From contig NIVC01001090.1 of assembly GCA_002269645.1 (NCBI GenBank), positions 5,084-69,083 on the forward strand: a stretch of 64,000 nucleotides of DNA, in the 5' to 3' direction. Below are positions 30,226 through 62,220 of the stretch, in pieces (position 1 is the first letter of the stretch; each line of letters starts with the position of its first letter). This DNA is from Macrostomum lignano. Taxonomy: Eukaryota. Under the pieces are notes generated by a model. The model saw nothing but the letters and a program-made list of their open reading frames with translations. It ran no database searches and was not told the DNA's origin. Position numbers and translations under genes: made by a program.

Positions 30226-31339
30226 ACTGAATGTACATAGCAAATGTACAGTGTTTTGGAATAACTTTTTTATAGCCTCCTCGCACCCCGAGAGTGGAGA
30301 GGCTACGTTTAGCCATAACAGTTTAATTAGTGAGAAATTCTAACCACTGCCCTCCCCTCCTCTGTATTGGCAAACTCTGCAGCAGTTTAACAGTGGATGG
30401 CAATTGGCAAATCGAGGGAATCCAGCAAAAAAGCGAAAGCGAAAAGCGATTTGTAAAAGCGAAAGGTTTATGAAAAGGCGATGCGATGCAATGCACAATG
30501 CAATACAACCCTACTAAATTAGGCACACCCATGGAAATTTTAGGTTTCTTTTAAAGGTAGTGTGTAAATTTTAAATGGCCTCCTAAGAAATGCGTATTTC
30601 CTTGGTTGTTAGACTGATGCAGACTGCAGTGGAGCTGAAAATATAAAAATTCCTTTCAGGGCTGCAAATTGGCAAGAAAGATGACGTGATCAAAGCATGA
30701 GAACAACGATGAGAGTAGTACGTCCCACAAACTGCCTTTCGAAGCAGGGATCGGCAGACTTTTACTTCAAAAGCCAGATAAAGAATCCAGCTTATGTGCG
30801 GGCCAGATGAGAGTGGAAAGGAGAAGGAATAGACTATTAGAAGAGAGGAGAGGCGAGAGGGGGATAAGAGAAAACATGGAAGATAAGAGGAGAGACAAGT
30901 GGTGAGGAGAGAGCAGAGAAGAAGGGAGGAAGAAGCGAGAGGAGGGGAGAAAGGAGGGAGAGGAAAGAGTAAATGTGAGAAGAGGGGAGAGATGAGACAG
31001 AGGATCGATGAGAGGAGAGTAAAGAAGAGTGAGAAGAGAGTAGAGATGAGAGAGCAGAAAGAAGATGACAGCGGGTCAAGAGGAGAGGAGAGATTAGAGA
31101 GGAGAGAGTAGAAAGGATAGAGAAGAGAGGAGATTAGAGGGGAGAGGAGTGAGAAGAGAAGAGATAGAGATAAGAGAGGGGTGTAAGAAGAGGGGAGAAA
31201 GGAGAGATGAGATTAGTAGTAATAGAAAATTACGTCCATACCACATTTTTCAATTGCAAAACACGTAATAAGGTACCCGTCAGAAATTTTATTACGCACA
31301 TACCTTATTTTTCTATTAAAAATCAAGTAGTAAGGTACC

Positions 31340-31486
31340 GGACCAAATGGTAGAGTATTCTACAGGAATTTCAACTACACGGCACAGTACCCACAAAGAA
31401 TTCAAAAGAAGAAAAGATCTCAATTTCGATCAACCAAGCAACTTGTCCAAAAAGATACCGAACCAAATGGTAGGGTATTCTACAGG
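31340..31486. repeat. 120-bp tandem repeat; the second unit is split by element A and continues at 42781-42875
   Basis: TACAGG occurs at 31361 and 31481 (period 120). The sequence after 42780 resumes the unit (TACAGGAATTCCAACTACAC...). Confidence 0.9.
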
Positions 31487-31559
31487 ACTACTAAGGGCCG
31501 GCAGATCCGGGCGTTTTTGGAGGTGGGGTGGGTGTCAACCCACCTCGCTTCTCATTGGC

Positions 31560-32420
31560 GCGCGCGCCGCAGGCGCGTGGCGCCAAGCGCCAATCAGGCG
31601 CCCATGCCGCAGGCGCACTGCACCCTCCCGATATGTGCACCCTCCCGAGCCGCAGGCGACCCTCCCGATATGTATGCCGCAGGCGCCCATGCCGCAGGGG
31701 TACCCTCCCGACATGTATGCGCACTCCCGATATGTACCCCGATATGTATGCCCTCCCTCCAGAGCAGCAGGCGCCCATGCCGCAGGCGCTCCACTCTCCC
31801 AAACCGCAGGCACTCGAGTGTACACTCTCCCAAACCGCAGGCATCCGAGTGTACACTCTCCCATGCCGCAGGCACCCCGAGTGTACACTCTCCTCAGTAC
31901 ACTCTCCCCAGTACACTCTCCCGATATGTATGCATACACAGATATGTAGTCAATGATATTAGGCTAGTGAAAACTACTTATAGTAGGTGAAATTGTGTAT
32001 ATTTACATAAAAATAGTAGGCAAAACATATTGGTAGGTGTAAATAATGGTGCATAATGCATATTAAAATGTACATATTGATGCATATGAGCAGCAAAAAA
32101 CACACCATGTAGGTGCATATTATATTGACAGAAATAGACAAAGCAGGTACATATCGCATTATTAGTGTAGTAGGCGCTAATAAAACATAGGCGGAAATAC
32201 ACACAGTATAATGCAGGTGCATACATACACAAAATGTAGGTGCAAATTGAGTATAATACAGGAAAATTACATAGCATATAATGTAGGCAGATTTTAAACA
32301 TTTTGCATATTAACCCGCAGGCACAAATTTCAATGCATAGGATAAAATACACACACTGGAAGTTAAGTATAATACAACATATGCATGCAAAATTAAGCAT
32401 ATAATGTAGGTGCAAAGTAA
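31560..32420. repeat. Subterminal repeat zone of element A (mirrored at about 41850-42710)
   Basis: Iterated CCGCAGGCGCCCATG, CCCTCCCGATATGT and GAGTGTACACTCTC motifs, then AT-rich TAGGTGCA repeats. Confidence 0.75.
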
Positions 32421-32757
32421 AATATCCAGCCCAGGATATTCGAGACACGCCCCCAGAGCCAGGGCCGGGGATCCCAATGTACAGTGCGGGCAGAGTAACA
32501 TAGAGAAATTCAATTCCTCCCCAGGGCCGGGGGATCCCAATGTACAGTGCGGGCAGAGAGGAGTAACAGAGACCGCCCCAATGCACAGTGGAGGTAGCAG
32601 ACCGCATACAAAGAGAATTCTCCCCAGGGGAGCTTCCAAATAGGTTTTATTATCTCAAGTGCCGCGCAGACAGGGAAAATCACGTACAGGGAGAAAAAAC
32701 CGCAAACCCCAGTAAACCTCCAGCCGCTCCTCAGTGTTGTTTCATGCCGCCTCCTCC

Positions 32758-33441
32758 TCAAGGGTCTCGAATCAGTAGTCGGCCGACTGCAATGGGGAAA
32801 TTAAAACAATTAATGTAGAAAGAATATATGCTTTGTATATGATAAGACGAATTGTGTATACAGTGTAATATCTTACCATAGGTGGGGGCGGCAGAGGCAG
32901 AGACACCGGGGGAGGCAGCACCAGAGTCGGCAGCGGCAGCAGTGGCGGCAGAGGCAGAGACACCAGAGTCGGCAGCAGGGGCGGCAGAGGCAGAGACACC
33001 GGGGGAGGCCGCACCAGAGTCGGCAGCGGCAGCAGGGGCGGCAGAGGCTGAGACACCAGAGTCGGCAGCGGCAGAGTCGGCATCGGCGGCAGAGGTGGCA
33101 GGGGCGGCAGCGGCAGAGGCACCAGAGTCGGCAGCGGCGGCGTTCACACCCCCTCCGATAGTCAGCGGTGGGAGGTCGAAAATCTCAGACCCGGTGTCGC
33201 TATCGTAGCTATTACCCCACGGGATGTCGAAAATCTCAGATCCCGGGTCGCTATCGTAGGTAATAGCCCACAAAGCCCAAGATAAGGCTATATCAGCACC
33301 CCAATTTTCAGGATAGTCAAGTCCGCCGTTTTCTATGCCTATGGGGATTATATGTTCGGGTATTTCACCGTCGAGGGAGGCTAATTCTTCAGATGGGCGG
33401 TTTTTATCCCAGAGGGTGGATAGAGCTCGGCGGCGGGACAT
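32758..33441 (-). CDS. Hypothetical 227-aa protein with an Ala/Ser/Asp-rich repeat (left-arm copy)
   Basis: ATG-initiated ORF, identical copy at 40825-41508; a possible intron follows ...CCTATG|GTAAG. No family recognised. Confidence 0.5.
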   Translation of the reverse strand: MSRRRALSTLWDKNRPSEELASLDGEIPEHIIPIGIENGGLDYPENWGADIALSWALWAITYDSDPGSEIFDIPWGNSYDSDTGSEIFDLPPLTIGGGVNAAAADSGASAAAAPATSAADADSAAADSGVSASAAPAAAADSGAASPGVSASAAPAADSGVSASAATAAAADSGAASPGVSASAAPTYGKILHCIHNSSYHIQSIYSFYINCFNFPIAVGRLLIRDP

Positions 33442-33553
33442 GTTGGAATCAGCAGACTATAGTATCAGGGCTAGGATTAGGGTTTGGCTCTCTAGAGGCT
33501 GGCTAGATTAGTTATATAGGGAGCCCCGCCGGGTGGCGCGAGCCAATAGGGAA

Positions 33554-34102
33554 CTACCAGCGCTGACTCTCGTCAAACAGATTTTCCCAGGGCGGGAATT
33601 GGTAGGGTTTGAGACCCACAACCTGGAGAACATCCTGGAGATTTTCTTCCTCCTCCTCAGTCCTGGCTACCAGAGAGGTATCGGTCCTGGCGCGCTTGGC
33701 TGGCGGCGGGGCCTTGGGTTTGAAGAGCTTGCCCAAACGGGCGGCAAACATCCGGCGCCACAGTTCCGGCGTGAATTCAATTGTGTAGCGCCAATTGAAC
33801 TTTGGATCCCGATTAAGCCAATTGCGCCGCAAACGAATCCTCCCCTGTGAAGCTTCTGCCGCCTTGAAGCTGCCCAACACGACTCTCTTGTCCACGTGAA
33901 GACGTGCCGCAGCCTCCAGGTCAGGGCGTGCAGCTTCGAGCTTCTTCCACTCGACCTCGCTTAAATAGATTGCTGGGAAGCCGTCCTTCCACACTCCAGC
34001 TTCGTCGGTGTAGAGCCGACGGATTTCAATTAAGTCATGCTCCGTTTCAAATGTGGGCTTCCGCGCCACAAAGTTTTCGTATAGAGCGATAGAAGAAGAC
34101 AT
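33554..34102 (-). CDS. PC4-like ssDNA-binding-domain protein, 182 aa (left-arm copy)
   Basis: LIEIRRLYTDEAGVWKDGFPAIYLSEVEWKKL resembles the PC4 signature; a TATATAAA box lies about 45 bp upstream. Confidence 0.6.
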   Translation of the reverse strand: MSSSIALYENFVARKPTFETEHDLIEIRRLYTDEAGVWKDGFPAIYLSEVEWKKLEAARPDLEAAARLHVDKRVVLGSFKAAEASQGRIRLRRNWLNRDPKFNWRYTIEFTPELWRRMFAARLGKLFKPKAPPPAKRARTDTSLVARTEEEEENLQDVLQVVGLKPYQFPPWENLFDESQRW

Positions 34103-34318
34103 GATTAGCAGCAGCAGCAGAGAGCTCTCCGACAGCCGCGCAGCGCTTTATATACCCCCAGATGGAGGGTGGGAGGGTGTGATTTTGGGGTGATTTTGAG
34201 TGATTCTGGTTGGTTTTTTGGTGATTTGGCCAATAATAGACGAGCTAAGCAGGTTTTTAGTATATATTCGGACCCCTAGAACAGGGGTAGAGAGATAATC
34301 CTTCTCTCTGTATGCAAA

Positions 34319-36177
34319 ATGGCTAAACGCAGCGCAGCATCGACTACTTTCCCAGCTGACAAGAGGCAACGTCTTTATGGTAAGTTTTAATTAATTTCTA
34401 TCCGGTTGTATATCAGTCTAGACGGGTTTTGAGTTGCTGCAGCAGGGAGCTTCTATGAATTGGCAGGGGCAGGAGCAAGAGAGGCGCGATAGAGAGTTGA
34501 TAAGAGCAGACTAGACAGGCGGGGGCTAACAAAGAGTTGAGGGGTTTACCGCTGTGACAGCTTCAGGCGCATGCGGGCTATAGAATTCAGAGTGCTGCGA
34601 CAGGGAGCTTACGAGTTTGAGTAGGGAGGGGGCGCAAACAAAGAGCAGGCAGGATGCGGCTAGGGTTAAAAAATTGCAGAGAATTTCAGCAGGAGGGTCT
34701 ACGCGCGAGGGATTATGAGCCAGGCGGGATAAAAAATGGTGGGCGCTCTGACAGCTGCAGGAGCATGCGGGAATTCAGAGTGCAGCAGCAGGGCATGCGA
34801 GTTTGAGTAGAGAGGGGGCGCAAACAAAGAGCAGGCCGGATAACAGCTGCGGGCTGGGGTTAAAAAAATTGCAGAGCATTTCAACAGGAGGGCCTGAGCG
34901 CAAGGGGTTATGCGTGAGCGCAAACAATGAGCCAGGCCAGATAAAAAATGGTGGGCGCTCTGACAGCTGCAGGAGCATGCGGGAATTCAGAGTGCTGCGA
35001 CAGGGAGCTTACGAGTTTGAGTAGGGAGGGTGCGCAAACAAAGAACCAGGCAGGATGCGGGCTAGGGTTAAAAAATTGCAGAGCGTTTCAGCAGCAGGGC
35101 TTGCTTGCGAGGGGTAGCGCAAACAAAGAGCCAGGCAGGATGCGGCTAGGGTTAAAAAAATTGCAGAGCGTTTCAGCAGCAGGGCTTGTGCGGGAGGAGT
35201 AGCGCAAACAATGAGCCAGGCCGGATGCGGCTAGGGTTAAAAAATTGCAGATGCGTCTCGGCAGGGGGGCATGCGTGCGAGGGGTTATGGGGGAGCGCTA
35301 ACAAAGAGCCAGGCGGGATGCGGCTGGGGTTAAAAAAATTGCAGAGCGTGTCGGTGGGAGGGCCTGAGCGCAAGGGGGGGGGGAGCGTGAACAATGAGTC
35401 GGTTGGAGTCTGATCCTGGGGTGCCACGAATTGACAGATTCTTCTGGTTTTTTATCTCCTTGTGTTTTTTCAGACGCGTTTGTCCCGCCTGCCCAACCTG
35501 AATTTGTTACCGGACCGGGTGAGTTATCCAGCCCCCCTATTCCCCAGGCAGACCCGGGCTGACTCACACTCCCCCTTCATTCCCCCTACAGGTTTTACGG
35601 CCCGGCTGGATAATCAGCGCGACCTGCCCAAGTTTAGGGCCAAGGGTGTGGAATATGTGGTAAAGTTGGATGGTACTAGCGACTTACGCGAGACATTTGC
35701 CAGTTTGCTCGAAGTATTCAAGCAGGATTTGGCTGGTGATGAATTTATGGCCGCGAAATTCGAGAGTGATAATATGCTCAAAGCAGCCCACACTCCCCCG
35801 GTGCGTGCGGCCCGCATGACAGCAGAGTTGTTGTTTAAGCACATTGACAAGATTGTGCAGTCAGACGCAAGCGTACTGTCGAGCAACTTTTCTATCCGGT
35901 TGCTAAAGGCCTGGGTGCCTCGAGGTGGATGTGCTCTCGAGAACAAGCATCTAGAAGAGAGGCACGCTTTTTCAAAGCACTATGTCCGCATCACCAACAC
36001 GGACAAGAGGTGCCTGCTGCGAGCTCTGGTCGTGGCCTGCGCCTATCTGCAATTTGTGGCCAAGCGCATCACCGAGGATGTGTGGCGCAGGATCAAGGCC
36101 AATTCACCCAAGCAGACTAAGCTGGTGACTGAGCTGCAAGTCGAAGCAGGCCTCTACACGGTAAGTTGTGCACTAAT
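34319..36177 (+). pseudogene. Left-arm duplicate of pPolB exons 1-3 (34319-34379, 35474-35518, 35592-36160), ending at the fold-back junction
   Basis: Mirror of 39948-38090; breaks 17 nt into intron 3. Confidence 0.75.
34560..35390. repeat. Composite tandem repeat in pPolB intron 1 (mirrored at about 38880-39710)
   Basis: GGGTTAAAAAATTGCAGA recurs at least six times within 80-200-bp units. Confidence 0.8.
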
Positions 36178-39100
36178 AGCGCTCAGTCTCCTCATAAATC
36201 GCCCGCATTGGCTGGTTCTTGAGCGGGTGCAGCACGTCGCCGTTGGGGAAGCACTTGGGACAGCCATGGAAGAAGCAGCCATGAAACTGCAGCACTGTCC
36301 TGGTCTCCGGGTCAAAGCCATCCACCTTACGGCCCATGGCGAAAGCCTCGCCGCCAGAATCGGCTGTCCGCAACCGGCCGCCAAACTCGGTTGCATTCAA
36401 ATGTGCCAGCCAGCAGCGCGCCTTGTGCGACTGTACATCGGACCGGCGGGAAATCACCCCAAGAGTGTTGGGCTCCATAAACTTGGTGGTGAAAACAGCC
36501 ATAGCCAAGCCCGCAATGGTGTTGGATTGGACAAATGCGTCCAGTCCGCAAATGTCCTTAATCAGGCGGGTGTACTTTAGACAGCCTTCCCGCAAAATTA
36601 ACGTGTCCTGCAGGCAATAGTCCAGGTACTCCTTATTGAAATTAAACACCTGTCCCTCCTGCTTGGCCAGCCAGTCAGCGATGGAGTCGTGCTGCTTATT
36701 CTTCTTCCCGCCGTACATATCAATTGAGCAGTAGGGACCTACGTACCCCCAGTTTTGTGGCTGATTGAACACGTGCGGGAAATCTCCTTTGGTCAGTTGG
36801 GTGCCCAAACCAAGCGCCTTTGGGAATTGCGCCAGACCAATAGGGATAAAGTTGAGGCTGTCCTTGAACGTGATCTTGTCGCACTTCATGTACATTAGGC
36901 GGCTGTTCTGGAAGATCACCTGCGGCTTCTTCTTGGCCAGTCCGTTGAGTAGGGCGCCGAGCAGGAGGAATGCGTCATACGCAGAGCCATTGTGCGCAAT
37001 TGCAATTGCCCCCTGCTTGAACACGCTAGTCAGCCAGCAGTAAAAGGCATCGATAGAGTGCAGTCCAACGGATACAAACTCTCGCATCCCACAGGCACAG
37101 TCATTGTGGGAGACACAGCTCGTAAAATCCAGCGCCAGATTGCGTCCCGCAATGCAATTGGCTGAGCTGTGCAACCCCCGCACACGCTGCAGCGGGGCCT
37201 GGGGAAGAGTTTGGGACACGCCTCGCAGGAGGTGGCAGCCGTAACCAAGTGTACCCGGTGCTGCTTGGTCCACGTACGTCTCGAAATCATAGTAAACGTA
37301 CGGGGCGCTAGACTCTTTGGCTTTGGGCGGGGTGACAAAGCACTCGTGGGTGGCCGTTTCGTCGTACTGCTTGCAGACTGGACACTTGGCGTAACCACAC
37401 TGATGCTCGGGGGGCTGGCCTACTTTCAGTTCTTCTAGATAGCCACACGTGCCGCAAACGTGGACTGAATCACAGCGCGATCTGCCCGCCTTATTCTTGC
37501 GCTTGTGATTCTCTAGGCACTGAGCATTATAGCAATTTAGCCCGCAATCATGGCATCTTACATATGCACGGTTGGCTTTGCAGTTGGAGCCCGGAGTCTT
37601 GCATGTACTGCAGGCATCAGCGCACTTGTGCTTCTCATAATTGCAATCGAAGGCCATCTCGCACTTGGCGCAGTAGTGATCGGAGCCGAAAAACGCAGGC
37701 AGCTTGGTGACCACATTAAAGTGCTGCTCGACCAGGTGCAGGTGCAGAATCTCGGTGCCAGGCAGGTTGAATATGCACGTGTTGGCCTCCTCTGCCCTGT
37801 ACACTCGTACACCAAAATCGTGGCCTGGATGCAGACGGTTCAGGGCCCGTATCGCCTCGGGCAGAACATCCACCCCAAAAGGACCGGCCTGCGAGACGAT
37901 TTGATGAGTCTGTGTGGAGGCAAAATATTTCTTTTAGTATTCCTTATCGTAAAAATTCTTATCAGAAAATATAGCTTTTAGTATTCCTTATCGTAAAAAT
38001 TCTTTTAGTAATCCATGAAAATACTAGAAACCAGAAACGAAATTCTTATCAGAAAATAAATCTTTTGGTATTCCCTGATACAGTGGAAAATTAGTGCACA
38101 ACTTACCGTGTAGAGGCCTGCTTCGACTTGCAGCTCAGTCACCAGCTTAGTCTGCTTGGGTGAATTGGCCTTGATCCTGCGCCACACATCCTCGGTGATG
38201 CGCTTGGCCACAAATTGCAGATAGGCGCAGGCCACGACCAGAGCTCGCAGCAGGCACCTCTTGTCCGTGTTGGTGATGCGGACATAGTGCTTTGAAAAAG
38301 CGTGCCTCTCTTCTAGATGCTTGTTCTCGAGAGCACATCCACCTCGAGGCACCCAGGCCTTTAGCAACCGGATAGAAAAGTTGCTCGACAGTACGCTTGC
38401 GTCTGACTGCACAATCTTGTCAATGTGCTTAAACAACAACTCTGCTGTCATGCGGGCCGCACGCACCGGGGGAGTGTGGGCTGCTTTGAGCATATTATCA
38501 CTCTCGAATTTCGCGGCCATAAATTCATCACCAGCCAAATCCTGCTTGAATACTTCGAGCAAACTGGCAAATGTCTCGCGTAAGTCGCTAGTACCATCCA
38601 ACTTTACCACATATTCCACACCCTTGGCCCTAAACTTGGGCAGGTCGCGCTGATTATCCAGCCGGGCCGTAAAACCTGTAGGGGGAATGAAGGGGGAGTG
38701 TGAGTCAGCCCGGGTCTGCCTGGGGAATAGGGGGGCTGGATAACTCACCCGGTCCGGTAACAAATTCAGGTTGGGCAGGCGGGACAAACGCGTCTGAAAA
38801 AACACAAGGAGATAAAAAACCAGAAGAATCTGTCAATTCGTGGCACCCCAGGATCAGACTCCAACCGACTCATTGTTCACGCTCCCCCCCCCCTTGCGCT
38901 CAGGCCCTCCCACCGACACGCTCTGCAATTTTTTTAACCCCAGCCGCATCCCGCCTGGCTCTTTGTTAGCGCTCCCCCATAACCCCTCGCACGCATGCCC
39001 CCCTGCCGAGACGCATCTGCAATTTTTTAACCCTAGCCGCATCCGGCCTGGCTCATTGTTTGCGCTACTCCTCCCGCACAAGCCCTGCTGCTGAAACGCT

Positions 39101-39948
39101 CTGCAATTTTTTTAACCCTAGCCGCATCCTGCCTGGCTCTTTGTTTGCGCTACCCCTCGCAAGCAAGCCCTGCTGCTGAAACGCTCTGCAATTTTTTAAC
39201 CCTAGCCCGCATCCTGCCTGGTTCTTTGTTTGCGCACCCTCCCTACTCAAACTCGTAAGCTCCCTGTCGCAGCACTCTGAATTCCCGCATGCTCCTGCAG
39301 CTGTCAGAGCGCCCACCATTTTTTATCTGGCCTGGCTCATTGTTTGCGCTCACGCATAACCCCTTGCGCTCAGGCCCTCCTGTTGAAATGCTCTGCAATT
39401 TTTTTAACCCCAGCCCGCAGCTGTTATCCGGCCTGCTCTTTGTTTGCGCCCCCTCTCTACTCAAACTCGCATGCCCTGCTGCTGCACTCTGAATTCCCGC
39501 ATGCTCCTGCAGCTGTCAGAGCGCCCACCATTTTTTATCCCGCCTGGCTCATAATCCCTCGCGCGTAGACCCTCCTGCTGAAATTCTCTGCAATTTTTTA
39601 ACCCTAGCCGCATCCTGCCTGCTCTTTGTTTGCGCCCCCTCCCTACTCAAACTCGTAAGCTCCCTGTCGCAGCACTCTGAATTCTATAGCCCGCATGCGC
39701 CTGAAGCTGTCACAGCGGTAAACCCCTCAACTCTTTGTTAGCCCCCGCCTGTCTAGTCTGCTCTTATCAACTCTCTATCGCGCCTCTCTTGCTCCTGCCC
39801 CTGCCAATTCATAGAAGCTCCCTGCTGCAGCAACTCAAAACCCGTCTAGACTGATATACAACCGGATAGAAATTAATTAAAACTTACCATAAAGACGTTG
39901 CCTCTTGTCAGCTGGGAAAGTAGTCGATGCTGCGCTGCGTTTAGCCAT
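36173..39948 (-). pseudogene. Protein-primed DNA polymerase B of element A, spliced and 3'-truncated; exons 39948-39888, 38793-38749, 38675-38107, 37909-36173
   Basis: N-terminal ITNTDKRCLLRALVVA, a Cys-rich region, ExoI YDFET, ExoII HNGSAYD, ExoIII YCLQD, KGDFPH and a VSR-like insert VDGFDPETRTVLQFHGCFFHGCPKC. Intron phases 1, 1, 0 are all compatible. Polymerase motifs A-C are absent; the stop is created at the junction. Confidence 0.85.
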
Positions 39949-40164
39949 TTTGCATACAGAGAGAAGGATTATCTCTCTACCCCTGTTCTAGGGGTCCGAA
40001 TATATACTAAAAACCTGCTTAGCTCGTCTATTATTGGCCAAATCACCAAAAAACCAACCAGAATCACTCAAAATCACCCCAAAATCACACCCTCCCACCC
40101 TCCATCTGGGGGTATATAAAGCGCTGCGCGGCTGTCGGAGAGCTCTCTGCTGCTGCTGCTAATC

Positions 40165-40713
40165 ATGTCTTCTTCTATCGCTCTATACGAAAACTTTGTG
40201 GCGCGGAAGCCCACATTTGAAACGGAGCATGACTTAATTGAAATCCGTCGGCTCTACACCGACGAAGCTGGAGTGTGGAAGGACGGCTTCCCAGCAATCT
40301 ATTTAAGCGAGGTCGAGTGGAAGAAGCTCGAAGCTGCACGCCCTGACCTGGAGGCTGCGGCACGTCTTCACGTGGACAAGAGAGTCGTGTTGGGCAGCTT
40401 CAAGGCGGCAGAAGCTTCACAGGGGAGGATTCGTTTGCGGCGCAATTGGCTTAATCGGGATCCAAAGTTCAATTGGCGCTACACAATTGAATTCACGCCG
40501 GAACTGTGGCGCCGGATGTTTGCCGCCCGTTTGGGCAAGCTCTTCAAACCCAAGGCCCCGCCGCCAGCCAAGCGCGCCAGGACCGATACCTCTCTGGTAG
40601 CCAGGACTGAGGAGGAGGAAGAAAATCTCCAGGATGTTCTCCAGGTTGTGGGTCTCAAACCCTACCAATTCCCGCCCTGGGAAAATCTGTTTGACGAGAG
40701 TCAGCGCTGGTAG
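40165..40713 (+). CDS. PC4-like ssDNA-binding-domain protein, 182 aa (right-arm copy)
   Basis: Same sequence as 33554-34102; TATATAAA at 40113-40120. Confidence 0.6.
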   Translation: MSSSIALYENFVARKPTFETEHDLIEIRRLYTDEAGVWKDGFPAIYLSEVEWKKLEAARPDLEAAARLHVDKRVVLGSFKAAEASQGRIRLRRNWLNRDPKFNWRYTIEFTPELWRRMFAARLGKLFKPKAPPPAKRARTDTSLVARTEEEEENLQDVLQVVGLKPYQFPPWENLFDESQRW

Positions 40714-40824
40714 TTCCCTATTGGCTCGCGCCACCCGCGGGGCTCCCTATATAACTAATCTAGCCAGCCTCTAGAGAGCCAAACCCTAATCCTAGCCCTG
40801 ATACTATAGTCTGCTGATTCCAAC

Positions 40825-41508
40825 ATGTCCCGCCGCCGAGCTCTATCCACCCTCTGGGATAAAAACCGCCCATCTGAAGAATTAGCCTCCCTCGACGGTG
40901 AAATACCCGAACATATAATCCCCATAGGCATAGAAAACGGCGGACTTGACTATCCTGAAAATTGGGGTGCTGATATAGCCTTATCTTGGGCTTTGTGGGC
41001 TATTACCTACGATAGCGACCCGGGATCTGAGATTTTCGACATCCCGTGGGGTAATAGCTACGATAGCGACACCGGGTCTGAGATTTTCGACCTCCCACCG
41101 CTGACTATCGGAGGGGGTGTGAACGCCGCCGCTGCCGACTCTGGTGCCTCTGCCGCTGCCGCCCCTGCCACCTCTGCCGCCGATGCCGACTCTGCCGCTG
41201 CCGACTCTGGTGTCTCAGCCTCTGCCGCCCCTGCTGCCGCTGCCGACTCTGGTGCGGCCTCCCCCGGTGTCTCTGCCTCTGCCGCCCCTGCTGCCGACTC
41301 TGGTGTCTCTGCCTCTGCCGCCACTGCTGCCGCTGCCGACTCTGGTGCTGCCTCCCCCGGTGTCTCTGCCTCTGCCGCCCCCACCTATGGTAAGATATTA
41401 CACTGTATACACAATTCGTCTTATCATATACAAAGCATATATTCTTTCTACATTAATTGTTTTAATTTCCCCATTGCAGTCGGCCGACTACTGATTCGAG
41501 ACCCTTGA
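40825..41508 (+). CDS. Hypothetical 227-aa Ala/Ser/Asp-repeat protein (right-arm copy)
   Basis: Same sequence as 32758-33441. Confidence 0.5.
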   Translation: MSRRRALSTLWDKNRPSEELASLDGEIPEHIIPIGIENGGLDYPENWGADIALSWALWAITYDSDPGSEIFDIPWGNSYDSDTGSEIFDLPPLTIGGGVNAAAADSGASAAAAPATSAADADSAAADSGVSASAAPAAAADSGAASPGVSASAAPAADSGVSASAATAAAADSGAASPGVSASAAPTYGKILHCIHNSSYHIQSIYSFYINCFNFPIAVGRLLIRDP

Positions 41509-43389
41509 GGAGGAGGCGGCATGAAACAACACTGAGGAGCGGCTGGAGGTTTACTGGGGTTTGCGGTTTTTTCTCCCTGTACGTGATTTTCCCTGTCTGC
41601 GCGGCACTTGAGATAATAAAACCTATTTGGAAGCTCCCCTGGGGAGAATTCTCTTTGTATGCGGTCTGCTACCTCCACTGTGCATTGGGGCGGTCTCTGT
41701 TACTCCTCTCTGCCCGCACTGTACATTGGGATCCCCCGGCCCTGGGGAGGAATTGAATTTCTCTATGTTACTCTGCCCGCACTGTACATTGGGATCCCCC
41801 GGCCCTGGCTCTGGGGGCGTGTCTCGAATATCCTGGGCTGGATATTTTACTTTGCACCTACATTATATGCTTAATTTTGCATGCATATGTTGTATTATAC
41901 TTAACTTCCAGTGTGTGTATTTTATCCTATGCATTGAAATTTGTGCCTGCGGGTTAATATGCAAAATGTTTAAAATCTGCCTACATTATATGCTATGTAA
42001 TTTTCCTGTATTATACTCAATTTGCACCTACATTTTGTGTATGTATGCACCTGCATTATACTGTGTGTATTTCCGCCTATGTTTTATTAGCGCCTACTAC
42101 ACTAATAATGCGATATGTACCTGCTTTGTCTATTTCTGTCAATATAATATGCACCTACATGGTGTGTTTTTTGCTGCTCATATGCATCAATATGTACATT
42201 TTAATATGCATTATGCACCATTATTTACACCTACCAATATGTTTTGCCTACTATTTTTATGTAAATATACACAATTTCACCTACTATAAGTAGTTTTCAC
42301 TAGCCTAATATCATTGACTACATATCTGTGTATGCATACATATCGGGAGAGTGTACTGGGGAGAGTGTACTGAGGAGAGTGTACACTCGGGGTGCCTGCG
42401 GCATGGGAGAGTGTACACTCGGATGCCTGCGGTTTGGGAGAGTGTACACTCGAGTGCCTGCGGTTTGGGAGAGTGGAGCGCCTGCGGCATGGGCGCCTGC
42501 TGCTCTGGAGGGAGGGCATACATATCGGGGTACATATCGGGAGTGCGCATACATGTCGGGAGGGTACCCCTGCGGCATGGGCGCCTGCGGCATACATATC
42601 GGGAGGGTCGCCTGCGGCTCGGGAGGGTGCACATATCGGGAGGGTGCAGTGCGCCTGCGGCATGGGCGCCTGATTGGCGCTTGGCGCCACGCGCCTGCGG
42701 CGCGCGCGCCAATGAGAAGCGAGGTGGGTTGACACCCACCCCACCTCCAAAAACGCCCGGATCTGCCGGCCCTTAGTAGTTACAGGAATTCCAACTACAC
42801 TGCACGGTACCCACAAATAATTCAAAAGAAGAAAAGATCCCAAGTCCGATCAACTGACCAACTTGTCCAAAAACGCATTTTCAGTATATTTCTAAACCAA
42901 GCGAATCAAAATATTCCCCGACTCTTCGTCCACGCCCCCCTTAAGTTTAAGGATCTCGGCGACGCACCCGCGGCGGAGCGCGCATGTATACCATTGTAAA
43001 GTTTGCCTCTTCTTCTCGGGTTCTCTAAGATGTTCCTAGAAAAATAAAACCCGCTGCTCCAGAAGAAGCTAGATAGCACCGCAGTACTACCTATCGATTT
43101 TTGCCTGAAAATGAACCTAAAACGTTGCCGTGACTTGGTAGGGTTGCTGCCACCTTGGTGTGCGGACTCGACGCGTCGGCAGAGTTGTCTATCCGTCACC
43201 TGAAAGAAAAATAACAAAGTCGCTCGGAGCAAAGGCAAATCTGAAAAATGTCTCGACAGTCGATCGTCTTAGTAGAATGCTGCTCGAACCTGAAAACCTG
43301 AAAACCTGAAATGAGAGAGGAGAGCTCGGAGGCAGCTCCGGTCGAGCCCAGGCAGGACGACACGATCTGGAGAAAATTGCTCGCAGATG

Positions 43390-44650
43390 CTCCGTATTTA
43401 TAGCCGAGCGGACCCCCAAAAGTCACGTGAGTTTCATGCGGTGAGCGCGTGAAACTTCCTTATTTGGGCATTGGAATCATGCGGGCGACGCGTGATCCAA
43501 GGCCAACTTCCAAATAAGGCAACCCTGTCACGCAGCAGTGGCGTGACTCAAGGTCAGTGGCCACGCACAGAGTGCGTGCACAGTCACGTGCTTAGTCTGT
43601 GCTAAAAATAGAATCGTGGGCGGATGAGTCATCCTGTTTACTCCCTCTAGGCAGCCCTTACACTCCGCGCAGGTGATGAGTCATCCTGCAACGCCTCCTC
43701 AGCGCGAGTGGGAAGACATTGAGTGTGGCTGCCCGCGCCCGCTCAGGCGATGAGTAATTGGGCAGTAAACACATAGGCCCAGCACAGGGTAACTCTCTCA
43801 CTAGATCAGGTGGACTGAGCTACTGTGCAGCGGATCACAGCACTCTTAGGGAAAGCTAGTGAATGCTGCTGAATAACCAGATAGCAGCCAGTCACTACAC
43901 CATCTTAAAACTATTCGCAGTCTCGTCCACCCGGAATCTGGCCACACTCTCAATGGACACGGAGCCGTCGGACCACAAGTGGCGGCAGTAGCCAGCACCG
44001 TCCAAAGTAGTGCAGCGGCGGTCGGATGGCAGTCCCCACGCCGTCGCGGGTACCCCCGTCCCGTGTCGTCCGAGTAGATTAACTCCCTCCGCCCGGCACA
44101 CCGTCCTGATTTCATCAATCCGCTCGATTTTATGTCAGTGTGGACTCAATGTGGGGCGGGGGCCGCGGCTCGAGGATGAAGGGGAAAAGTCCAGCTGCGC
44201 CCCTCCCCGCCCTCATGCGCCCAAGAAACCGAAGCCTGCAGCTACGACCAGTTGGGCGACCGGCTGGACTTTCACTTAGCGAGATAGTAATACAATAGAG
44301 CACCTGGCCCCACGTGGGGCGGCCTGCGGACTCTCAACTTAAGGAGACAGTATTACAATAGAGCAGAGCTCGCGTGCGTTGGCCGGAAAGCACCATTATT
44401 TTCGCCAAACAAACTTATTTAATCAGCCTGCCGAACGGATTTGTTTGTCCATGGGGCGCGGGCGTGGGCCGGAAAGCACCATTATTTTCGCCAGGAACTG
44501 CCCAACTTATTTAACAAGCCTGCGGAACGGATTTGTTTGTCAATGGGCAGCTGTTCCTTCGTTATTCAAGCCCACCCCCCGAAACTGCCACGTGGCACAA
44601 AAAGCCAGATGGCGCCCCTCCCCACCAAATCCTGCTCTATAAAAGAAAGT
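43390..44650. promoter_or_regulatory. Divergent promoter region with two TATA boxes, AP-1 sites and E-boxes
   Basis: TATAAATA on - (43395-43402) and TATAAAAG on + (44638-44645); TGA(C/G)TCA at 43544, 43625, 43677; CACGTG at 43424, 43585, 44311, 44589; an 85-bp direct duplication at about 44374-44547. Confidence 0.55.
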
Positions 44651-44738
44651 AGAAAATTCGCTCAAACTGCCAACGAGCCAAGGACAACAGGAAGCAACCC
44701 AAGCGTACGGAGACTAAACCAACCGCCGCTGGAGAACC

Positions 44739-45912
44739 ATGACCGCCTATCCCGCCGAAACAGTCCTGACGCTGCGCCAACTCACTGACGGAGCAAGACT
44801 ACACATTGGCGACGAGTCAACAAACGGCGAGTGCTTCTTCCGATCTGTGACGTGGACTCGGCCGGGGGAGAAGAAACGCTACCCGATCATACTGCAGACG
44901 GAGACCCCGCTGGAGCTGCTGAAAGGGATCAACGAGCGAGGAAACCACCACGCCGAACAATTGACCGCGTATCAGGCCGACCATCGCGAGGAAATCGGAC
45001 TGAATTTTCTCGGCGAAGATTTCTGCAAGCCACTGTTCAATCTACTGAGGTGAGTTACCCCCCCCCCCCCCGACAACTTTTCAGGATTCACTAGCCCCTT
45101 GGTGTCAGTTAAAATCAACACATAAACTCCAATTTAATTCCAGAACTGTGGAACGAACAATCGCACAGGAGCTCGAGGAGAAGCCGGACTCTAAAGCGCT
45201 GCTGCGCGTGACGCGACAATCCTCACGCGGTATAACGGGTGGGGCCTCCGCGGACTACGCGCCAATGCACTGGATTCCAATCAAGCCAAACTTCAGCTGT
45301 CTCGGCTTTCGCACAGACCAGGCCACCCACCCGGACGGTCGAGAGGCAGCCCTGAGCGAATTCAAAGGACTGACGGGACGCTACCACCTTTCAATTCAAG
45401 TCACGTCGCTATTCTGTCCACGGACCGGAACCGGCTGGAGGCTCTCTTTCGCTCTACGCTCTATTGTGCTGATGGAGAGCAACCCAAGCCGGCTGGCCGT
45501 CTTCGCGGGAGTCCGACAACAGCTAGTCAAGAAGAGGGAGCCAGATACAGACGAAAAACCAGAAGCCGGCTCTACAATGGAGAGGAAGCCGCCCAAGCGG
45601 CACCAGTCCAGTTCTGAAGAGGAAGCCGAACCTAGCACAAAGAAGAAGCCACCGACCAAGAAGCCGGCGACCCCTCGCCGTCCTAATGCGCCCAAGAAAC
45701 CGAAGCCGCCTGCAGCTACGCAGAGCAACGACCGGCTGGCCCCAACTGCTGAAGGTTTGCCCTCGGCCAAGGCACTGGTGAGCCCTACCGGGTCAACTAT
45801 CTCAACGTCAACTGGCGGAACTCGGGTGGCCTTTAAAGACCTGGCTTACCAACGTCACCTGGCGGCGGCCGCGGAGCAGTCCACGTCCAGCGACTCTGAA
45901 GCTGACTGCTGA
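44739..45912 (+). CDS. Spliced ORF (44739-45049, 45144-45912; about 359 aa), putative OB-fold ssDNA-binding protein with a Lys/Pro/Ser-rich tail
   Basis: TATA box, good ATG context and a phase-2 intron AG|GTGAGT...TTCCAG|A. Segments PIILQTETP and GRYHLSIQVTSLF...WRLSFALRSIVL recall T7 gp2.5-type viral SSBs (inference). Confidence 0.6.
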
Positions 45913-46051
45913 ATCCAAATCCTAAATCTGATATTCAAATTTTTAAACAACGCTTGTCGATAAGAAATACATTGGCCACCCAGGTTCCGCCAGGAAAATT
46001 TCTATATTGTGGGTGACATCTCTATTGAGCCTTTGTTTTTTCTTCTTTCAG

Positions 46052-46981
46052 CGCTTGGTGCTAGTCATTTTTGGTGCCGCACTGAAAATCTCTCCTGGAG
46101 AAAAGCTTTGCATGCACGAGACTGAGATAGCTTTAGCTCGAAAGTCATATTCGTGCAAGGTTTTTAAAGCGAGACCTACAATGTGCAAATTTAAATTTGC
46201 GGATTTAACCATTCAGCTTTATCCCAACGGGAAGCTGACAATTTTTTGCCGCAATATGAATGTGGACGTGGGATCGATTTTACAGTTTGTTAACGAAATT
46301 ACTATTTACAAACTGGATTTCGATTCTGTCCACGTTCAAACTTCTACAATGGTTGGTCAAGTTCAGTTTCCCGCAAGAAACAGCTTCCACTATTTAAAAA
46401 GCTGTGTCGGAAACTATGAGGACTTTAGGGCAACCTATGATGCAGAACTTTTTCCACAGGCAATCAGTTTAAGACAGTCAAAAACTCCCAGACTTTTTTG
46501 CAACGTCTTTCATACTGGAAAGATTGTCGCAATGGGAGCAAAAAATGAGACCGAAGTAAACCTCTTAACTCGGTCCGTTAATGCATTGCTTGCTATGCTA
46601 CTGATAGCAGTACTATTGGCAAAAAAATCCAGCCATGGCCCGGATCTACATTCTGGAGGGGAACCTGGCGGCAGGCAAAACAACGCTGCTAAGAAACCTG
46701 GCCCTGAACTCGCGGTTGGAGAAATGGGAACCACAGATTCTCTGGGCCAAGGAGCCGGTTCAGGCCTTCACCTCACACCCGAAACTGCCGGCAGAAACGA
46801 ACCCGCTGGAGGAATTCCACCGAGGATCTCTATCGGCACTCGGTTTTCAAGTCGATGCGAGCCATTGTCTGCTTCAGCGGAACAAGAACATGAGAGAGCT
46901 TCTGCTCTCACCGGAGCCGGATCAACCAGAGTACGACATTCTGGTGATGGAAAGGCTCATGGCGTCGGCTCACGCATTTAA
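46052..46981 (+). CDS. Divergent TATA-binding-protein-like (TBP-fold) protein
   Basis: Two TBP-like repeats: YSCKVFKARPTMCKFKFADLTIQLYPNGKLTIF and YDAELFPQAISLRQSKTPRLFCNVFHTGKIVAMGAKNETEV (compare TBP YEPELFPGLIYR...IFVSGKVVLTGAK). The start is uncertain (acceptor at 46051, first ATG 46112); the 3' tail overlaps the kinase gene. Confidence 0.7.
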   Translation, partial: RLVLVIFGAALKISPGEKLCMHETEIALARKSYSCKVFKARPTMCKFKFADLTIQLYPNGKLTIFCRNMNVDVGSILQFVNEITIYKLDFDSVHVQTSTMVGQVQFPARNSFHYLKSCVGNYEDFRATYDAELFPQAISLRQSKTPRLFCNVFHTGKIVAMGAKNETEVNLLTRSVNALLAMLLIAVLLAKKSSHGPDLHSGGEPGGRQNNAAKKPGPELAVGEMGTTDSLGQGAGSGLHLTPETAGRNEPAGGIPPRISIGTRFSSRCEPLSASAEQEHERASALTGAGSTRVRHSGDGKAHGVGSRI

Positions 46982-47306
46982 CTCGGTTCTAACAGAGGCG
47001 GGGCGGCTAACAACGCTGGAGAAGGCAATCTGCTGCGCACAGGTGGAGACATTGCAGGCGATCAAACCAAGCGAGGCCACCCTGATCTACCTCGACATTG
47101 AGCCAAGCCTGGCACTAGAGCGGATCCGGCAACGCGGCCGAAAAGGAGAATCCGAAGTGACGCTCGACTATCTGAACCGGCTGCACGAAGCAATGGTGTC
47201 CTATTTCTGTCTCTATCGGGCGGTCCACCGAGTGACGGTCGGACCATCTACAACACCAAGCGACGTGGCTCGGCTGGTTGGGCGCATTGTGCGAGGACTA
47301 AACTAA
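46635..47306 (+). CDS. Deoxynucleoside kinase family protein (223 aa)
   Basis: P-loop EGNLAAGKTT, EPV, FQ, ER motif (VMERL), LIYLD and the lid RIRQRGRKGE...YLNRLHE. Confidence 0.92.
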   Translation: MARIYILEGNLAAGKTTLLRNLALNSRLEKWEPQILWAKEPVQAFTSHPKLPAETNPLEEFHRGSLSALGFQVDASHCLLQRNKNMRELLLSPEPDQPEYDILVMERLMASAHAFNSVLTEAGRLTTLEKAICCAQVETLQAIKPSEATLIYLDIEPSLALERIRQRGRKGESEVTLDYLNRLHEAMVSYFCLYRAVHRVTVGPSTTPSDVARLVGRIVRGLN

Positions 47307-48299: not shown

Positions 48300-48840
48300 C
48301 TATTGATACAGTGTGTTGTGTGCAAGCGCGTGTTTCGTTCTCGCGCCGAGTTGCACATTCACACACATCAATTCTGTTTCGTTCCTGAACAACTACTGGA
48401 TGGGCCGATTCGGGAACTGACTGCCGACAATCCTCCTGATGGGTGGAATGTTGAATTGCGCGAGTCAGCTCACCGAGGACTGGTCAACTATTTGGTGTTT
48501 ATACCCGACCAGCAGGAGGGCGGTGATGCGGAGCGTCTGTTGTCACCCGGCAGCTTGTTGGCCCAATTGCGCGACTCGATTTACCGCCTATTCACACAGC
48601 TGGGTTCACCCTCGTTACTACTGCGAACTTGTATGCACCTAAAAGTGAGAATGGCTAGACCGAGAACCACTACTGCCACCACCGCTGAGGAAGAAGTGAT
48701 ATTGCATACTTCAACACCAACGTTGCAACAATTCGCTTTGACAACCACAACAACAACAGCGAGCCACAGCAAACGTGGCTCTTATCGCGCGATGCCTACA
48801 ATGATTGGTTTGAATTGGTTTTAAACGAACTGGTGAGCAA
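48300..48840 (+). pseudogene. C2H2 finger plus a region resembling a Maverick pPolB N-terminus; frameshifted near 48750 and interrupted after 48840
   Basis: CVVCKRVFRSRAELHIHTHQF, then ESAHRG...MHLKVRMAR...EEVILHTS. An alternative frame continues DWFELVLNELVSK into a consensus donor AAG|GTGAGT. Confidence 0.5.
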
Positions 48841-48844
48841 GGTG

Positions 48845-48944
48845 AGTAGTAGTATGTTGTAAGGGGCTGCGCCACACTTGATTGCTCGGGCGCATTGCGC
48901 GCCAGCTCGCTGGATGACTCAGCCCCTTACAACATACTACTACT
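48845..48944. repeat. 100-bp palindrome with perfect 25-bp arms starting (AGT)3
   Basis: AGTAGTAGTATGTTGTAAGGGGCTG (48845-48869) and its reverse complement (48920-48944), with a 50-nt loop. Confidence 0.9.
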
Positions 48945-49466
48945 ACCAGGGGGTCATTGATTCAAGTGGGGTGTGATAAACAAAATATATATATAAATAT
49001 ACATATATCTGTGAGTGAGGGTGTTGAGGGTGAGGGCATGTGGGGGCATTGGCATGTGGAATATTTCTCAGAACACAGAATTTCCGAAATTTTTATACTT
49101 TTAAAAAGGGGGGGGTGCCCTCGCCCTCATGCCCTCACTCATTTTGAAAATCACTAAAAATAACTGAAAAATGACTAAAAACAGGCGAAAATGGTCTGAA
49201 AACAGCGATTTTTTGTGATTTTCAAAAATTTTGAAAAAGTGCAATTTTCACGGTTCCAGCTCTGAAACCATGAGAAAAGTTGGATTTACGGGTCAATTTA
49301 ATGCGATTTCAGGTATATACAAAATGAAAGTGTCATCCAATTCAACGATAGTAAATTTTATATATATATAAAATGGCCTTCAGTAAACCATTATTTCTAG
49401 GAAACGCTTTAGATATTCAGTCAGCTATAGACATAATTGACAATTAGGCATAATCGCCATATAAAA

Positions 49467-50216
49467 ATGAATGATAAAAATGAACGCATCTATCCTGTGG
49501 TTGAGCTGCATGAAGCAGATTTGAGGGAGCGGGACTATTTCAATCAGAGAAAGGGTGAAATCAAAGGCAGTATTGAATGCATTACGAAAGATCTTACAAT
49601 TTATAGCAAAAAGGTAAAAAAGTACAAACGACAAAGTAGCAGGATAAATTGGATCAACATTGTGACAGGAAATGTAAGTCTCTTGGCTGCTACAGGAATT
49701 GGCATAGCAACATCGATACTGACATTGAATCCCTTAGTCATTGGAGTAGTAATCGGGGCAATGAGTGGTTTTGAAGCTGTAAAATCCACGTCGTTGTTTG
49801 CAACTGTGAAAATGCATTGCCAAAAGCAGAAGGCAAAATACATTTTTCTCAGAGATCTGGCAAATCAATACAGAGAGAGATTGTATACTTACTCCCAAAA
49901 AGCAGTTGATGATTATAGATTAACTCTTGAAGAGGTTCAAGCAGCTGCTGCAATTTATTCAGAATACAGAGAGAAAAGAGACCAATTGTTAGACGCCTGT
50001 GTTGCGCCTGAAGAAGTTAACCGTTCGGAAGTCGTTGATAAAATCCTCAAAGAGAGTAGACTTGGTCATTCAGCGAAGGAAAAAATTAAAAAGGAACTGC
50101 TGGAGAAAGATCTGAGAGAAAAATTGGGTCTAGCTGATAAGCCAAAAGAGTACTCGGCAACACTCAATCTTCAATCAAATGCTCCAAGTGCGCCCCCTAT
50201 GCTTGAGTCTGTTTAA
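49467..50216 (+). CDS. Maverick accessory membrane protein (249 aa)
   Basis: A basic helix (KKVKKYKR), a long hydrophobic Gly-rich segment and KAVDDYRLTLEE resemble a common Polinton accessory ORF; ends in PSAPP. Confidence 0.6.
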   Translation: MNDKNERIYPVVELHEADLRERDYFNQRKGEIKGSIECITKDLTIYSKKVKKYKRQSSRINWINIVTGNVSLLAATGIGIATSILTLNPLVIGVVIGAMSGFEAVKSTSLFATVKMHCQKQKAKYIFLRDLANQYRERLYTYSQKAVDDYRLTLEEVQAAAAIYSEYREKRDQLLDACVAPEEVNRSEVVDKILKESRLGHSAKEKIKKELLEKDLREKLGLADKPKEYSATLNLQSNAPSAPPMLESV

Positions 50217-50231
50217 TTTTTTTTCTTAAAA

Positions 50232-53200: not shown

Positions 53201-53293
53201 ATTCGTGAGATTATGAAACAAACAATGAGTCCGTTAGATGATAAAATATATTATTTGGATCCTATCAGATCTATTCCTCATCAGCCAATGTAA
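50232..53293 (+). pseudogene. Protein-primed DNA polymerase B of element B, inactivated
   Basis: NTKDNRCFL*SILAKLHP, an HNH-like EHNHYNGKYRGAACQSCN, motif A YLDKNNLYG, motif B KLLNNSFYGK, motif C YSDCDS and a C-terminal SPLDDK. One frameshift near 50550 and in-frame stops at 50678, 52496, 52787 and 53132. Confidence 0.92.
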
Positions 53294-55206: not shown

Positions 55207-55701
55207 TTAAACCGCGGGGAAAGAAACGAGGCAAGACAAGGGATGGCGCGAAACGGAACCTCTGCTGGTCGAAAAAAAAATGGCAGCCGATGAATTATTT
55301 ATTTCTTGCGAAAGATTTAATAGCCGAATGAGAAAAAAAGCTAAAAAAAATTCTGAGCAAACACGAACGCACGGCGAACAAGCGGGGGACCGGACTAAAT
55401 AAGAAATCAAGCTAGCACCCCCGCGACCCCCCGCCCCCCCGCAGCACACGCAACCCCGCACGCACCCGCCCCAGCCAAGCGAGCCCCTCCCCCGCAGTTT
55501 AAACGCCCTTACCACCAACACAGTGGCAAGGGTAACATTAAACCGCGGGGAAAGGAACGAGGCAAGACAAGGGATGGCGCGAAACGGAACCTCCAAACCC
55601 AAACCGGAGAACGGACAGAAACGGAGACAGTAGTAAAAGAAAAGACACCGGGAAACTAAAAGAGCGGAGAAGCTAACGCCAGCACAGACACAGTTAGACA
55701 G

Positions 55702-59813: not shown

Positions 59814-60024
59814 ATTGATTGTGGCAGAGAAAAAAAATTCTGAGCAAACACGAACGCACGGCGAACAAGCGGGGGACCGGACTAAATAAGAAATCAAGCT
59901 AGCACCCCCGCGACCCCCCGCCCCCCGCAGCACACGCAACCCCGCACGCACCCGCCCCAGCCAAGCGAGCCCCTCCCCCCGCAGTTTAAACGCCCTTACC
60001 ACCAAAACAGTGGCAAGGGTAACA

Positions 60025-60602
60025 AGAATTACATCTGGCATGTCTATTAAACATTTGGACTTTGTACGTTTGTATTCCCTAATTTCACCATCGACATAAT
60101 AGAAACCTGGTGGAGCAAATACCAAGGCGGGAATATCAAAACCCACACTTTGTTGAATCGTTACTTTCAATCCATCTACCTTGTTAAAGTAAAAGTGGTG
60201 TCCCTTGTTTGTCTGAACAATCCAATCACAATGAGTCATACACAGTTCATTCAACTTAGGGAATAGGTCAGCATTATCAATATCGATTACGGTTATATTT
60301 GAATTTCGAGTATCTATCCAAATCATGTTGTCTACCTCTGGTCGAAATGTTGGTGAGGTTGAATTCCTATCTGCTTTGGTTGGCATTCCTGACGGTATTT
60401 TTTTCTTTGTTTTACTATTCCATGTTATACTGCAACTTCCGAATATAAAATTAAGTTCTCCATAGAGATTAATTAGTTTATCGTACGATTTTGTTTGTTT
60501 TAAATTTCTCAACCTTGTTGGTGGGGCGTCATGGTTTTGAAGCGGATCCTGTACGATGATCACAGGAGAGAAACTTGAATCGTTTTGATTTTTTCTTTCC
60601 AT
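60025..60602 (-). pseudogene. D5-like primase-helicase, 5' part (Prim-Pol/AEP-like domain)
   Basis: ITVIDID, VQTNKGHHFYF and GFDI motifs; joins 55206 in frame once the retrotransposon is removed. Confidence 0.82.
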
Positions 60603-62130: not shown

Positions 62131-62220
62131 CTAAGATAGTAATTTTTTGTTTATTGACCCCGTTGGGAGTTTTTGTGCTTATGTTGTGTGTTTTGATGGT
62201 GACTATGGTGTTATGTCTAA

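Follow-up and report, generated by a model that had tools for sequence, protein, structure and literature searches.

The locus and its element

The stretch of DNA analysed here, called the window, comprises 64,000 nucleotides of the Macrostomum lignano genome (contig NIVC01001090.1, positions 5,084 to 69,083). An open frame at 46052-46981 encodes 309 amino acids and had been interpreted, from the letters alone, as a highly divergent gene related to the TATA-binding protein (TBP) inside a mobile element. The frame is open, the peptide quoted for it is present and the protein belongs to the TBP family; the TBP-like domain itself ends at 46606, and 46052, taken as the start of the gene, is a splice acceptor position without a start codon. 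The mobile setting is confirmed: the gene belongs to a Polinton, as shown by the Polinton gene order in sister copies and by the terminal repeat in the window (Table 1).

Table 1. Features of the TBP-carrying Polinton and its interruption in the window
Feature	Position	Strand	Basis
TBP-carrying Polinton, terminal repeat at its left end	31215..31486	+	Matches each of the two ends of a sister copy at 93-94%
Palindromic Polinton, a separate element inserted into this left end	31487..42780	.	4.7-kb inverted arms, 6-bp flanking duplication
Upstream (early) gene, canonical TATA box	44638..44645	+	TATA-type box similarly placed in 7/7 copies
Upstream gene, exon 1 (SSB-like, a lead only)	44739..45049	+	GT-AG joint to exon 2 in 4/4 runs; conserved
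Upstream gene, exon 2	45144..45912	+	Consists of a conserved domain, a low-complexity basic linker and an acidic tail
Upstream gene, tail: predicted 5' splice donor (GTRAGY), phase 0	45778..45783	+	9/9 copies, 6/6 subfamilies
Splice acceptor (CAG after a pyrimidine tract), in phase 0 with the TBP frame	46027..46051	+	8/8 representative copies
TBP-like domain, complete two-repeat saddle (predicted)	46052..46606	+	Profile, predicted model, fold matches
Run-on of the TBP-like frame over the kinase gene	46607..46981	+	Not conserved, probably not functional
Deoxynucleoside kinase gene	46635..47306	+	PF01712, E 1e-19
Protein-primed DNA polymerase (pPolB) gene, 5' part	48300..48844	+	Sister ORF PF03175; starts at phase-0 acceptor

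The window copy is interrupted twice (31487-42780 and 48845), the second time by a third Polinton that cuts the polymerase gene, and the window contains no capsid module of it. The kinase gene has an acceptor-like CAG two bases ahead of its own ATG. In sister copies, the order is a two-exon upstream gene, the TBP-like gene, kinase, pPolB, dUTPase and a PLA2-like gene, followed by the packaging ATPase, putative minor capsid, a pX-like gene, an unknown gene, the integrase, a small gene, putative major capsid and a protease-like gene, between terminal repeats that are about 18.8 kb apart in a sister copy. The pPolB of this copy (PF03175, E 1e-20) carries an endonuclease VII insert, and its integrase combines an rve domain (E 7e-6, below the cut-off) with a chromo domain; Pox_A32 and C48 protease give weak matches (E 0.006 and 0.045, respectively). 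The putative capsid genes have no Pfam matches, and their names, major and minor, are presumed from characteristic motifs and gene order.

Both intruding elements have features of their own. The element at 31487-42780 is an 11.3-kb palindromic Polinton derivative with identical 4.7-kb arms, each containing a PC4-like gene (about 150 matches in the genome), a partial pPolB in the middle and the ends ACTACT...AGTAGT. The third, AT-rich Polinton-like element (48845-64000) contains pPolB pieces and D5 primase-helicase, F5/8 fibre-like and protease-like genes; a GC-rich insert of the DIRS type (about 55000-60200), with reverse transcriptase and tyrosine-recombinase-like genes, divides its primase-helicase gene. 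Probable host genes in the window encode a small heat-shock protein, a C2H2 zinc-finger protein and an FkbM-type methyltransferase (6749-7252, 11611-12927 and 23141-24262). Just past the right end of a sister Polinton lies an ORF (L059, 7466-7912), probably of the host, which is presumed to be T-box-like from a characteristic motif.

Fold and extent of the TBP-like protein

The Pfam TBP profile (PF00352) matches residues 126-180 of the window protein with 34.2 bits against a cut-off of 22.9. The same profile matches 16 of the 17 members of an alignment of relatives, and in a PDB sequence search every match down to E 0.004 is a TBP (best E 1e-6). An AlphaFold model of residues 1-185, built on the alignment of 17 relatives, is confident throughout (mean pLDDT 93, pTM 0.83). 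With this model, Foldseek places TBP entries at all ranks from 1 to 44 (best E 2.6e-9, TM about 0.7). VIA-align pairs model residue 1 with yeast TBP residue 66 and gives Z 15.3 to solved TBPs, with an rmsd of 2.7 over 167 residues; the first non-TBP row appears only at Z 8.3, and Rep initiators score weakly (Z 8.2). As a predicted structure, 46052-46606 is thus confirmed as a complete two-repeat TBP saddle, and the earlier caveat that such a fold might not be predicted fell away. The first half-repeat had been described as eroded; since it is fully folded in the model and conserved among relatives, it is better regarded as diverged or remodelled.

The first ATG of the frame, at 46112, lies inside the fold. 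At the other end, the codons past 46606 overlap the kinase gene in another frame; in the subfamilies L008 and L038, a stop codon directly follows the TBP domain and the run-on codons are absent. One subfamily has the kinase gene in the same open frame as the TBP-like gene, 473 codons in all (L031, 8572-9990, minus strand), a possible natural TBP-kinase fusion.

Residues of the DNA face and the TFIIB side

Residues were compared in yeast TBP numbering over 20 mobile-type rows, and their roles, apart from the TBPm3 positions, are those generally ascribed to these residues in TBP. The window protein retains E188, L189, F190, P191, R196 and F207 and differs at N69, L114, F116, V122, T124, N159, V161, I194, V203, L205 and T215; the base-reading residues N69, T124, N159 and T215 are among those lost. 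These changes are systematic across the mobile relatives. E188 and F190 are retained in all 20 rows, V161 is replaced by threonine in 20/20 and L205 by asparagine in 15/20, and the DNA face presents new invariant residues instead of decay. The idea that repeat 2 is conserved for reading an unchanged TATA half was dropped, as the base-reading residues of this repeat are changed too.

Members of the TBP family have four intercalating phenylalanines. An inspection of these positions gave a mixed picture: F190 and F207 are kept, F116 is a tyrosine, and Phe38 occupies the F99 position in the alignment, where the strands of the model suggest a shortened stirrup. The acidic second stirrup, through which TBPs contact TFIIB, appears to be present, judging from D186, E188 and L189 in the sequence.

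All three positions that change the specificity of yeast TBP in the mutant TBPm3 (I194, V203 and L205) are changed in the window protein; in the sections of PMC1636458 that concern them, the specificity of TBPm3 is relaxed rather than switched, and selections with wild-type TBP gave no G at positions after the fifth base. The residue pattern fits an altered DNA specificity with a retained TFIIB side, without by itself fixing the sequence that would be read.

Phylogeny, selection and distribution

In a tree of 60 rows, the TBP-like proteins form a clade (98/89) separate from the cellular clade (99/95), and the window protein groups with the other subfamilies and with four outside proteins. The approximately unbiased (AU) tests on a 26-row subset reject a grouping with host TBP (p 4.6e-7) and with host TRF2 (p 0.0009), both of which are located elsewhere in the genome in three copies each. 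A search of the genome with the protein gave 72 matches of 31-100% identity (150 of 155 candidates scored), in a Polinton setting wherever inspected and not at a conserved low-copy host locus. A grouping with host TBP or TRF2 in a conserved host locus, which had been named as the outcome that would overturn the original idea, is contradicted by both the AU tests and the multi-copy Polinton loci.

The family is under purifying selection. Between the window's subfamily and L004, dN/dS is 0.144 and 0.149, and within two subfamilies it is 0.16 and 0.14, with 5 of the 11 pairs compared being saturated at synonymous sites. The window copy itself may be drifting, because its dN/dS against the closest sister copy is 0.5, a value that rests on 14 changes. 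The TBP-like gene is retained in six subfamilies. It is also intact in a family of about 25 near-identical copies (L065, L021-L022, L058) that has lost most of pPolB and has no kinase; this family has RNA-type contig cover in 4/4 runs.

TBP-like genes are not limited to this lineage. The Pfam TBP profile has at least 150 matches in the genome (150 of 330 candidates scored), which are matches and not copies, and most of the 20 stretches inspected (L066-L085, L093, L097) are Polintons of other lineages with TBP-like genes of their own. Distant relatives are widespread, with 27 matches in one search, about half of them cellular, and 26 in a second. A metagenome scan confirmed 4 of 72 candidates, and in the two of these loci that are long enough (contigs L106 and L108), Polinton genes adjoin the TBP-like gene. 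Other searches yielded nothing: a word-index homologue search with the single protein (0/51 candidates), two IMG/VR scans (0/14 and 0/36 candidates confirmed) and a cluster look-up for names (0/10 proteins). Longer, fused forms of the protein were found in 0 of 7,999 scored, which is weak evidence.

Promoter boxes of the Polinton lineages

Three clean TATA boxes had been listed as element promoters. All three exist; only the one at 44638 can be assigned to a gene of the TBP-carrying element, namely the upstream gene, and RNA-type contigs start downstream of it at 44668-44687. The box at 40113 lies in the different, inserted Polinton, and that at 43395 on the minus strand lies in a stretch that is absent from the sister copy, with no Met-started long ORF behind it.

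A different box marks the capsid module. Most capsid-module genes of the sister copies have TATAAG[CT] ahead of them. Five capsid modules (35,167 bases) contain it 29 times in sense and never in antisense orientation, and four replication modules (30,191 bases) do not contain it at all. TATAAG is the top 6-mer common to all five elements, and the count of TATAAGC exceeds the maximum of 100 shuffles in each of the five. Several boxes have no long ORF directly downstream. The interruption of the window copy at 48845 is the reason why these boxes are seen in sister copies only.

Two other Polinton lineages in the genome have different TBP-like genes and different boxes. The box of lineage 3 is TATAAATA (12 sense, 0 antisense), canonical as a TATA box and potentially readable by host TBP, and those of lineage 2 are YTTAAGAA (10/0), which is not a TATA box, and WTAAGAA (7/0). 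The boxes of the lineages are nearly mutually exclusive. Lineage 2 has its TBP-like gene within the capsid module, and the lineage box precedes this gene as well. Adjoining a lineage-2 Polinton (L066), on the strand opposite its genes, is a tandem array with a 24-bp unit, each unit containing TATAAGC.

Among the capsid-gene neighbourhoods of other Polintons sampled, a TBP-profile match was present in 7/7, although one match is weak and broken. A Polinton lacking TBP, as a control would require, did not turn up there, and for this reason a dependence of the box on the TBP-like gene cannot be shown. The D5-helicase and PC4 elements have no TBP match and are not valid controls, as no capsid gene is present in the stretches examined. 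Likewise, the co-variation of box and TBP is not to be read as co-evolution, because the lineages are few and related.

The upstream gene and the missing start codon

The TBP frame begins with an arginine directly after the acceptor, which reads YAG behind its pyrimidine tract in 8/8 representative copies, and has no ATG there; 7 of 8 copies lack an upstream in-frame methionine. The polymerase gene likewise starts at an acceptor in 8 of 11 distinct contexts, with ATG at that codon in two. The upstream gene has no Pfam or PHROGs matches, its DUF2738 lead scores 0.86 (under 0.9), and its model is of low confidence (pLDDT 45). Contigs of runs whose RNA-type label is a guess, and which drop rare forms, show the first intron of the upstream gene spliced in 4/4 and 3/4 runs and cover the TBP frame in 2/4 and 4/4, with the TBP core lacking contig cover in runs X8 and X10. 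They run unspliced across both the donor and the acceptor site, and neither splice junction into the TBP exon appears in the RNA-type contigs of 8 run comparisons. The contigs matched to the window stem from sister copies, as their divergence from it of about 4-5% indicates.

Two routes to a start codon can be considered. The conserved donor in the SSB-like gene suggests a spliced fusion, in which the TBP-like protein would be made in cis behind the upstream protein from the donor at 45777/45778; this route is put at about even odds. Four copies of lineage 3 have a similar donor and a TBP-like gene without methionine; homology of their upstream gene to that of the window lineage was not found (probability 2%). 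The donor type has a background of 25/144 among Val-Ser pairs elsewhere, and its conservation may simply reflect an inherited type of serine codon. Other cis arrangements were tried and rejected. Joining the upstream gene's exon 1 to the TBP exon would be out of frame. A micro-exon ending in ATG/GT was absent from the 1.4-1.7 kb that precede the gene in the four copies from the subfamilies of the window and L004, as well as from L029 and the shorter upstream region of L032, with only single non-homologous sites in L008 and L038.

A real possibility, although short of even odds, is that the acceptor receives, by trans-splicing, a host spliced leader ending in AUG, which provides the start codon of a stand-alone TBP-like protein, with the replication unit acting as an operon. 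According to parts of PMC12582326 and PMC8629364, the flatworm leader has ATG at its end and can provide a start, and the published M. lignano leader's 3' end has 61 exact matches in the genome, 33 of which are followed by a donor. Three distant relatives have their own methionine exactly one column before the acceptor arginine, the acceptor CAG of the polymerase gene sits at a codon that is ATG in one subfamily, and the acceptors of the eight kinase and dUTPase starts listed are out of frame with the tail donor. A weak hint is that upstream-gene contigs end at 46007 and 46011 in two studies. However, this route leaves the phase-0 donor of all six subfamilies, and the similar one in four lineage-3 copies, unexplained, and no leader-bearing end is found among the loose contig ends listed (15/24 and 15/16). 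The use of both routes, cis fusion and leader AUG, is thought unlikely. The 28 of the 61 leader-end matches without a donor (L041-L043) are possibly retro-inserted trans-spliced mRNAs; the three inspected run into other sequence.

Function of the TBP-like protein

The TBP-like protein is probably (at about 60%) an element-encoded promoter factor for late genes, working in the manner of herpesvirus BcRF1 on TATT. It likely switches these genes on, because most capsid-module genes sit behind a shared TATA-like box. Host TBP would start the replication unit from the canonical TATA box at 44638, and the TBP-like protein would be produced from this unit by splicing into the acceptor at 46051/46052. 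The protein would then bind TATAAG[CT] ahead of most capsid-module genes, recruit host TFIIB and RNA polymerase II to these boxes and in this way turn on the capsid module. The sequence-only reading had proposed that the protein could redirect Pol II to element promoters; this is the best-supported reading, with TATAAG[CT] as the likely target and not the clean TATA boxes that had been listed. Lineage 2, with its TBP-like gene behind its own box, is a poor fit to a simple early-to-late cascade.

The alternative of a decoy, also raised earlier, holds that host TBP or TRF2 reads the boxes while the element protein binds TFIIB, NC2, Mot1 or TAFs and shuts down or de-represses transcription. The invariance of the E188 stirrup in 20/20 mobile rows alongside the loss of N69, T124, N159 and T215 would suit it, as would the canonical box of lineage 3. 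Nevertheless, it is improbable: the new invariant residues of the DNA face are not a sign of decay, YTTAAGAA of lineage 2 is not a TATA box, and a different box in each lineage is not predicted by it.

It is marginally less probable that a helper virus polymerase or a different protein of the Polinton is what reads the boxes, with the TBP-like protein acting in replication or packaging, for example by bending terminal-repeat DNA. The gene lies among replication genes and is possibly fused to an SSB-like protein, and the fold scores weakly against Rep initiators (Z 8.2). Baculoviruses have late initiators of the TAAG type, which offer a parallel for another reader of the boxes. On the other hand, the best matches of the fold are true TBPs (Z about 15), the TFIIB-side stirrup is retained, and in lineage 2 the gene is found in the capsid module. 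The same low probability is given to a general TBP substitute of relaxed specificity that boosts early and late element promoters alike. The conserved early TATA box and the relaxed, not switched, specificity of TBPm3 (in the relevant sections of PMC1636458) point in this direction, but such a factor would not account for why replication and capsid modules differ so sharply in box type. A captured host TBP or TRF2 copy or a decaying pseudogene without a role, as the double interruption of the window copy, its ORF without ATG and some broken copies might suggest, is very improbable in view of a dN/dS of about 0.14, the rejected host grouping and the retention of the gene in six subfamilies and in a high-copy family with a largely deleted polymerase.

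Beyond the late-promoter role, a broader proposal is put forward tentatively and is rather doubtful: the co-resident Polinton lineages might each have a private transcription code within a single nucleus, made up of a TBP and a TATA variant of their own, with the TBP of the window lineage being obtained only by splicing, as an SSB fusion or with a start codon from the host leader. If true, an SSB-TBP fusion would tether late transcription to replicating genomes. The start-less architecture itself points to either a replication-protein fusion or a mobile element that takes its initiator codon from the host spliced leader.

Comparison with known systems

These observations bear on how Polintons time the expression of their capsid genes without a polymerase of their own, and on whether Polintons of animals count as true viruses. 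The pairing of a small TBP paralogue with a box of six to eight bases makes this directly testable, with TATAAGCA, TATAAATA, CTTAAGAA and TATAAAAG as comparison boxes, and several natural TBP/box pairs in one genome constitute a ready set of altered-specificity TBPs for studies of TATA recognition.

The element shares with Polintons/Mavericks (adintoviruses) the pPolB with endonuclease VII insert, the rve-chromo integrase, the A32-like ATPase, the pX-like and protease-like genes, the terminal inverted repeats and the length of about 18.8 kb. A gene label "TBP" occurs in the legends of MELD virus maps, for a Polinton-like element (Starrett et al. 2021, PMC8502044; 10.1101/697771); in the parts of these sources considered, the legends stand in a section on non-animal datasets and the label comes without analysis, and "TBP" is absent from the searched part of one supplementary file. 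Other Polinton papers searched by term do not mention TBP or TATA, lineage-specific boxes or start-less spliced genes. No paper on a Polinton TBP with its box, and no description of a Polinton whose own gene is fused to a replication protein or takes its start codon from a spliced leader, was found in the literature searched, outside of which lie most subscription journals, Repbase and bioRxiv supplements.

With cellular TBP, TRF2/TLF and archaeal TBP, the protein has in common the two-repeat saddle and the repeat-2 residues E188, L189, F190, P191, R196 and F207. It differs from these in its identity of about 18-20%, its remodelled first stirrup and changed base-reading residues, its mobile multi-copy locus and its separate clade. 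The TBP-like proteins of giant viruses (Nucleocytoviricota) are likewise divergent viral versions of the fold, with a best BFVD match at E 1e-8; the identity to them is 8-17%, and the match to solved cellular TBPs is equally good or better (TM about 0.7). Giant viruses mostly bring their own RNA polymerase.

The closest functional parallel is the herpesvirus vTBP, represented by BcRF1 of EBV and ORF24 of KSHV. The Polinton domain differs from it in being a minimal saddle of 185 residues with no known partner complex and a function inferred from sequence and model, and its box is TATAAG[CT] instead of TATT and varies by lineage; it is not a member of the herpesvirus system. EBV BcRF1 acts on TATT late promoters, as described in parts of PMC4922670. 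According to sections of the same paper and of PMC7498053, the likeness lies in a nuclear DNA virus without its own polymerase that encodes a TBP-like protein and keeps its structural genes behind a non-canonical TATA box.
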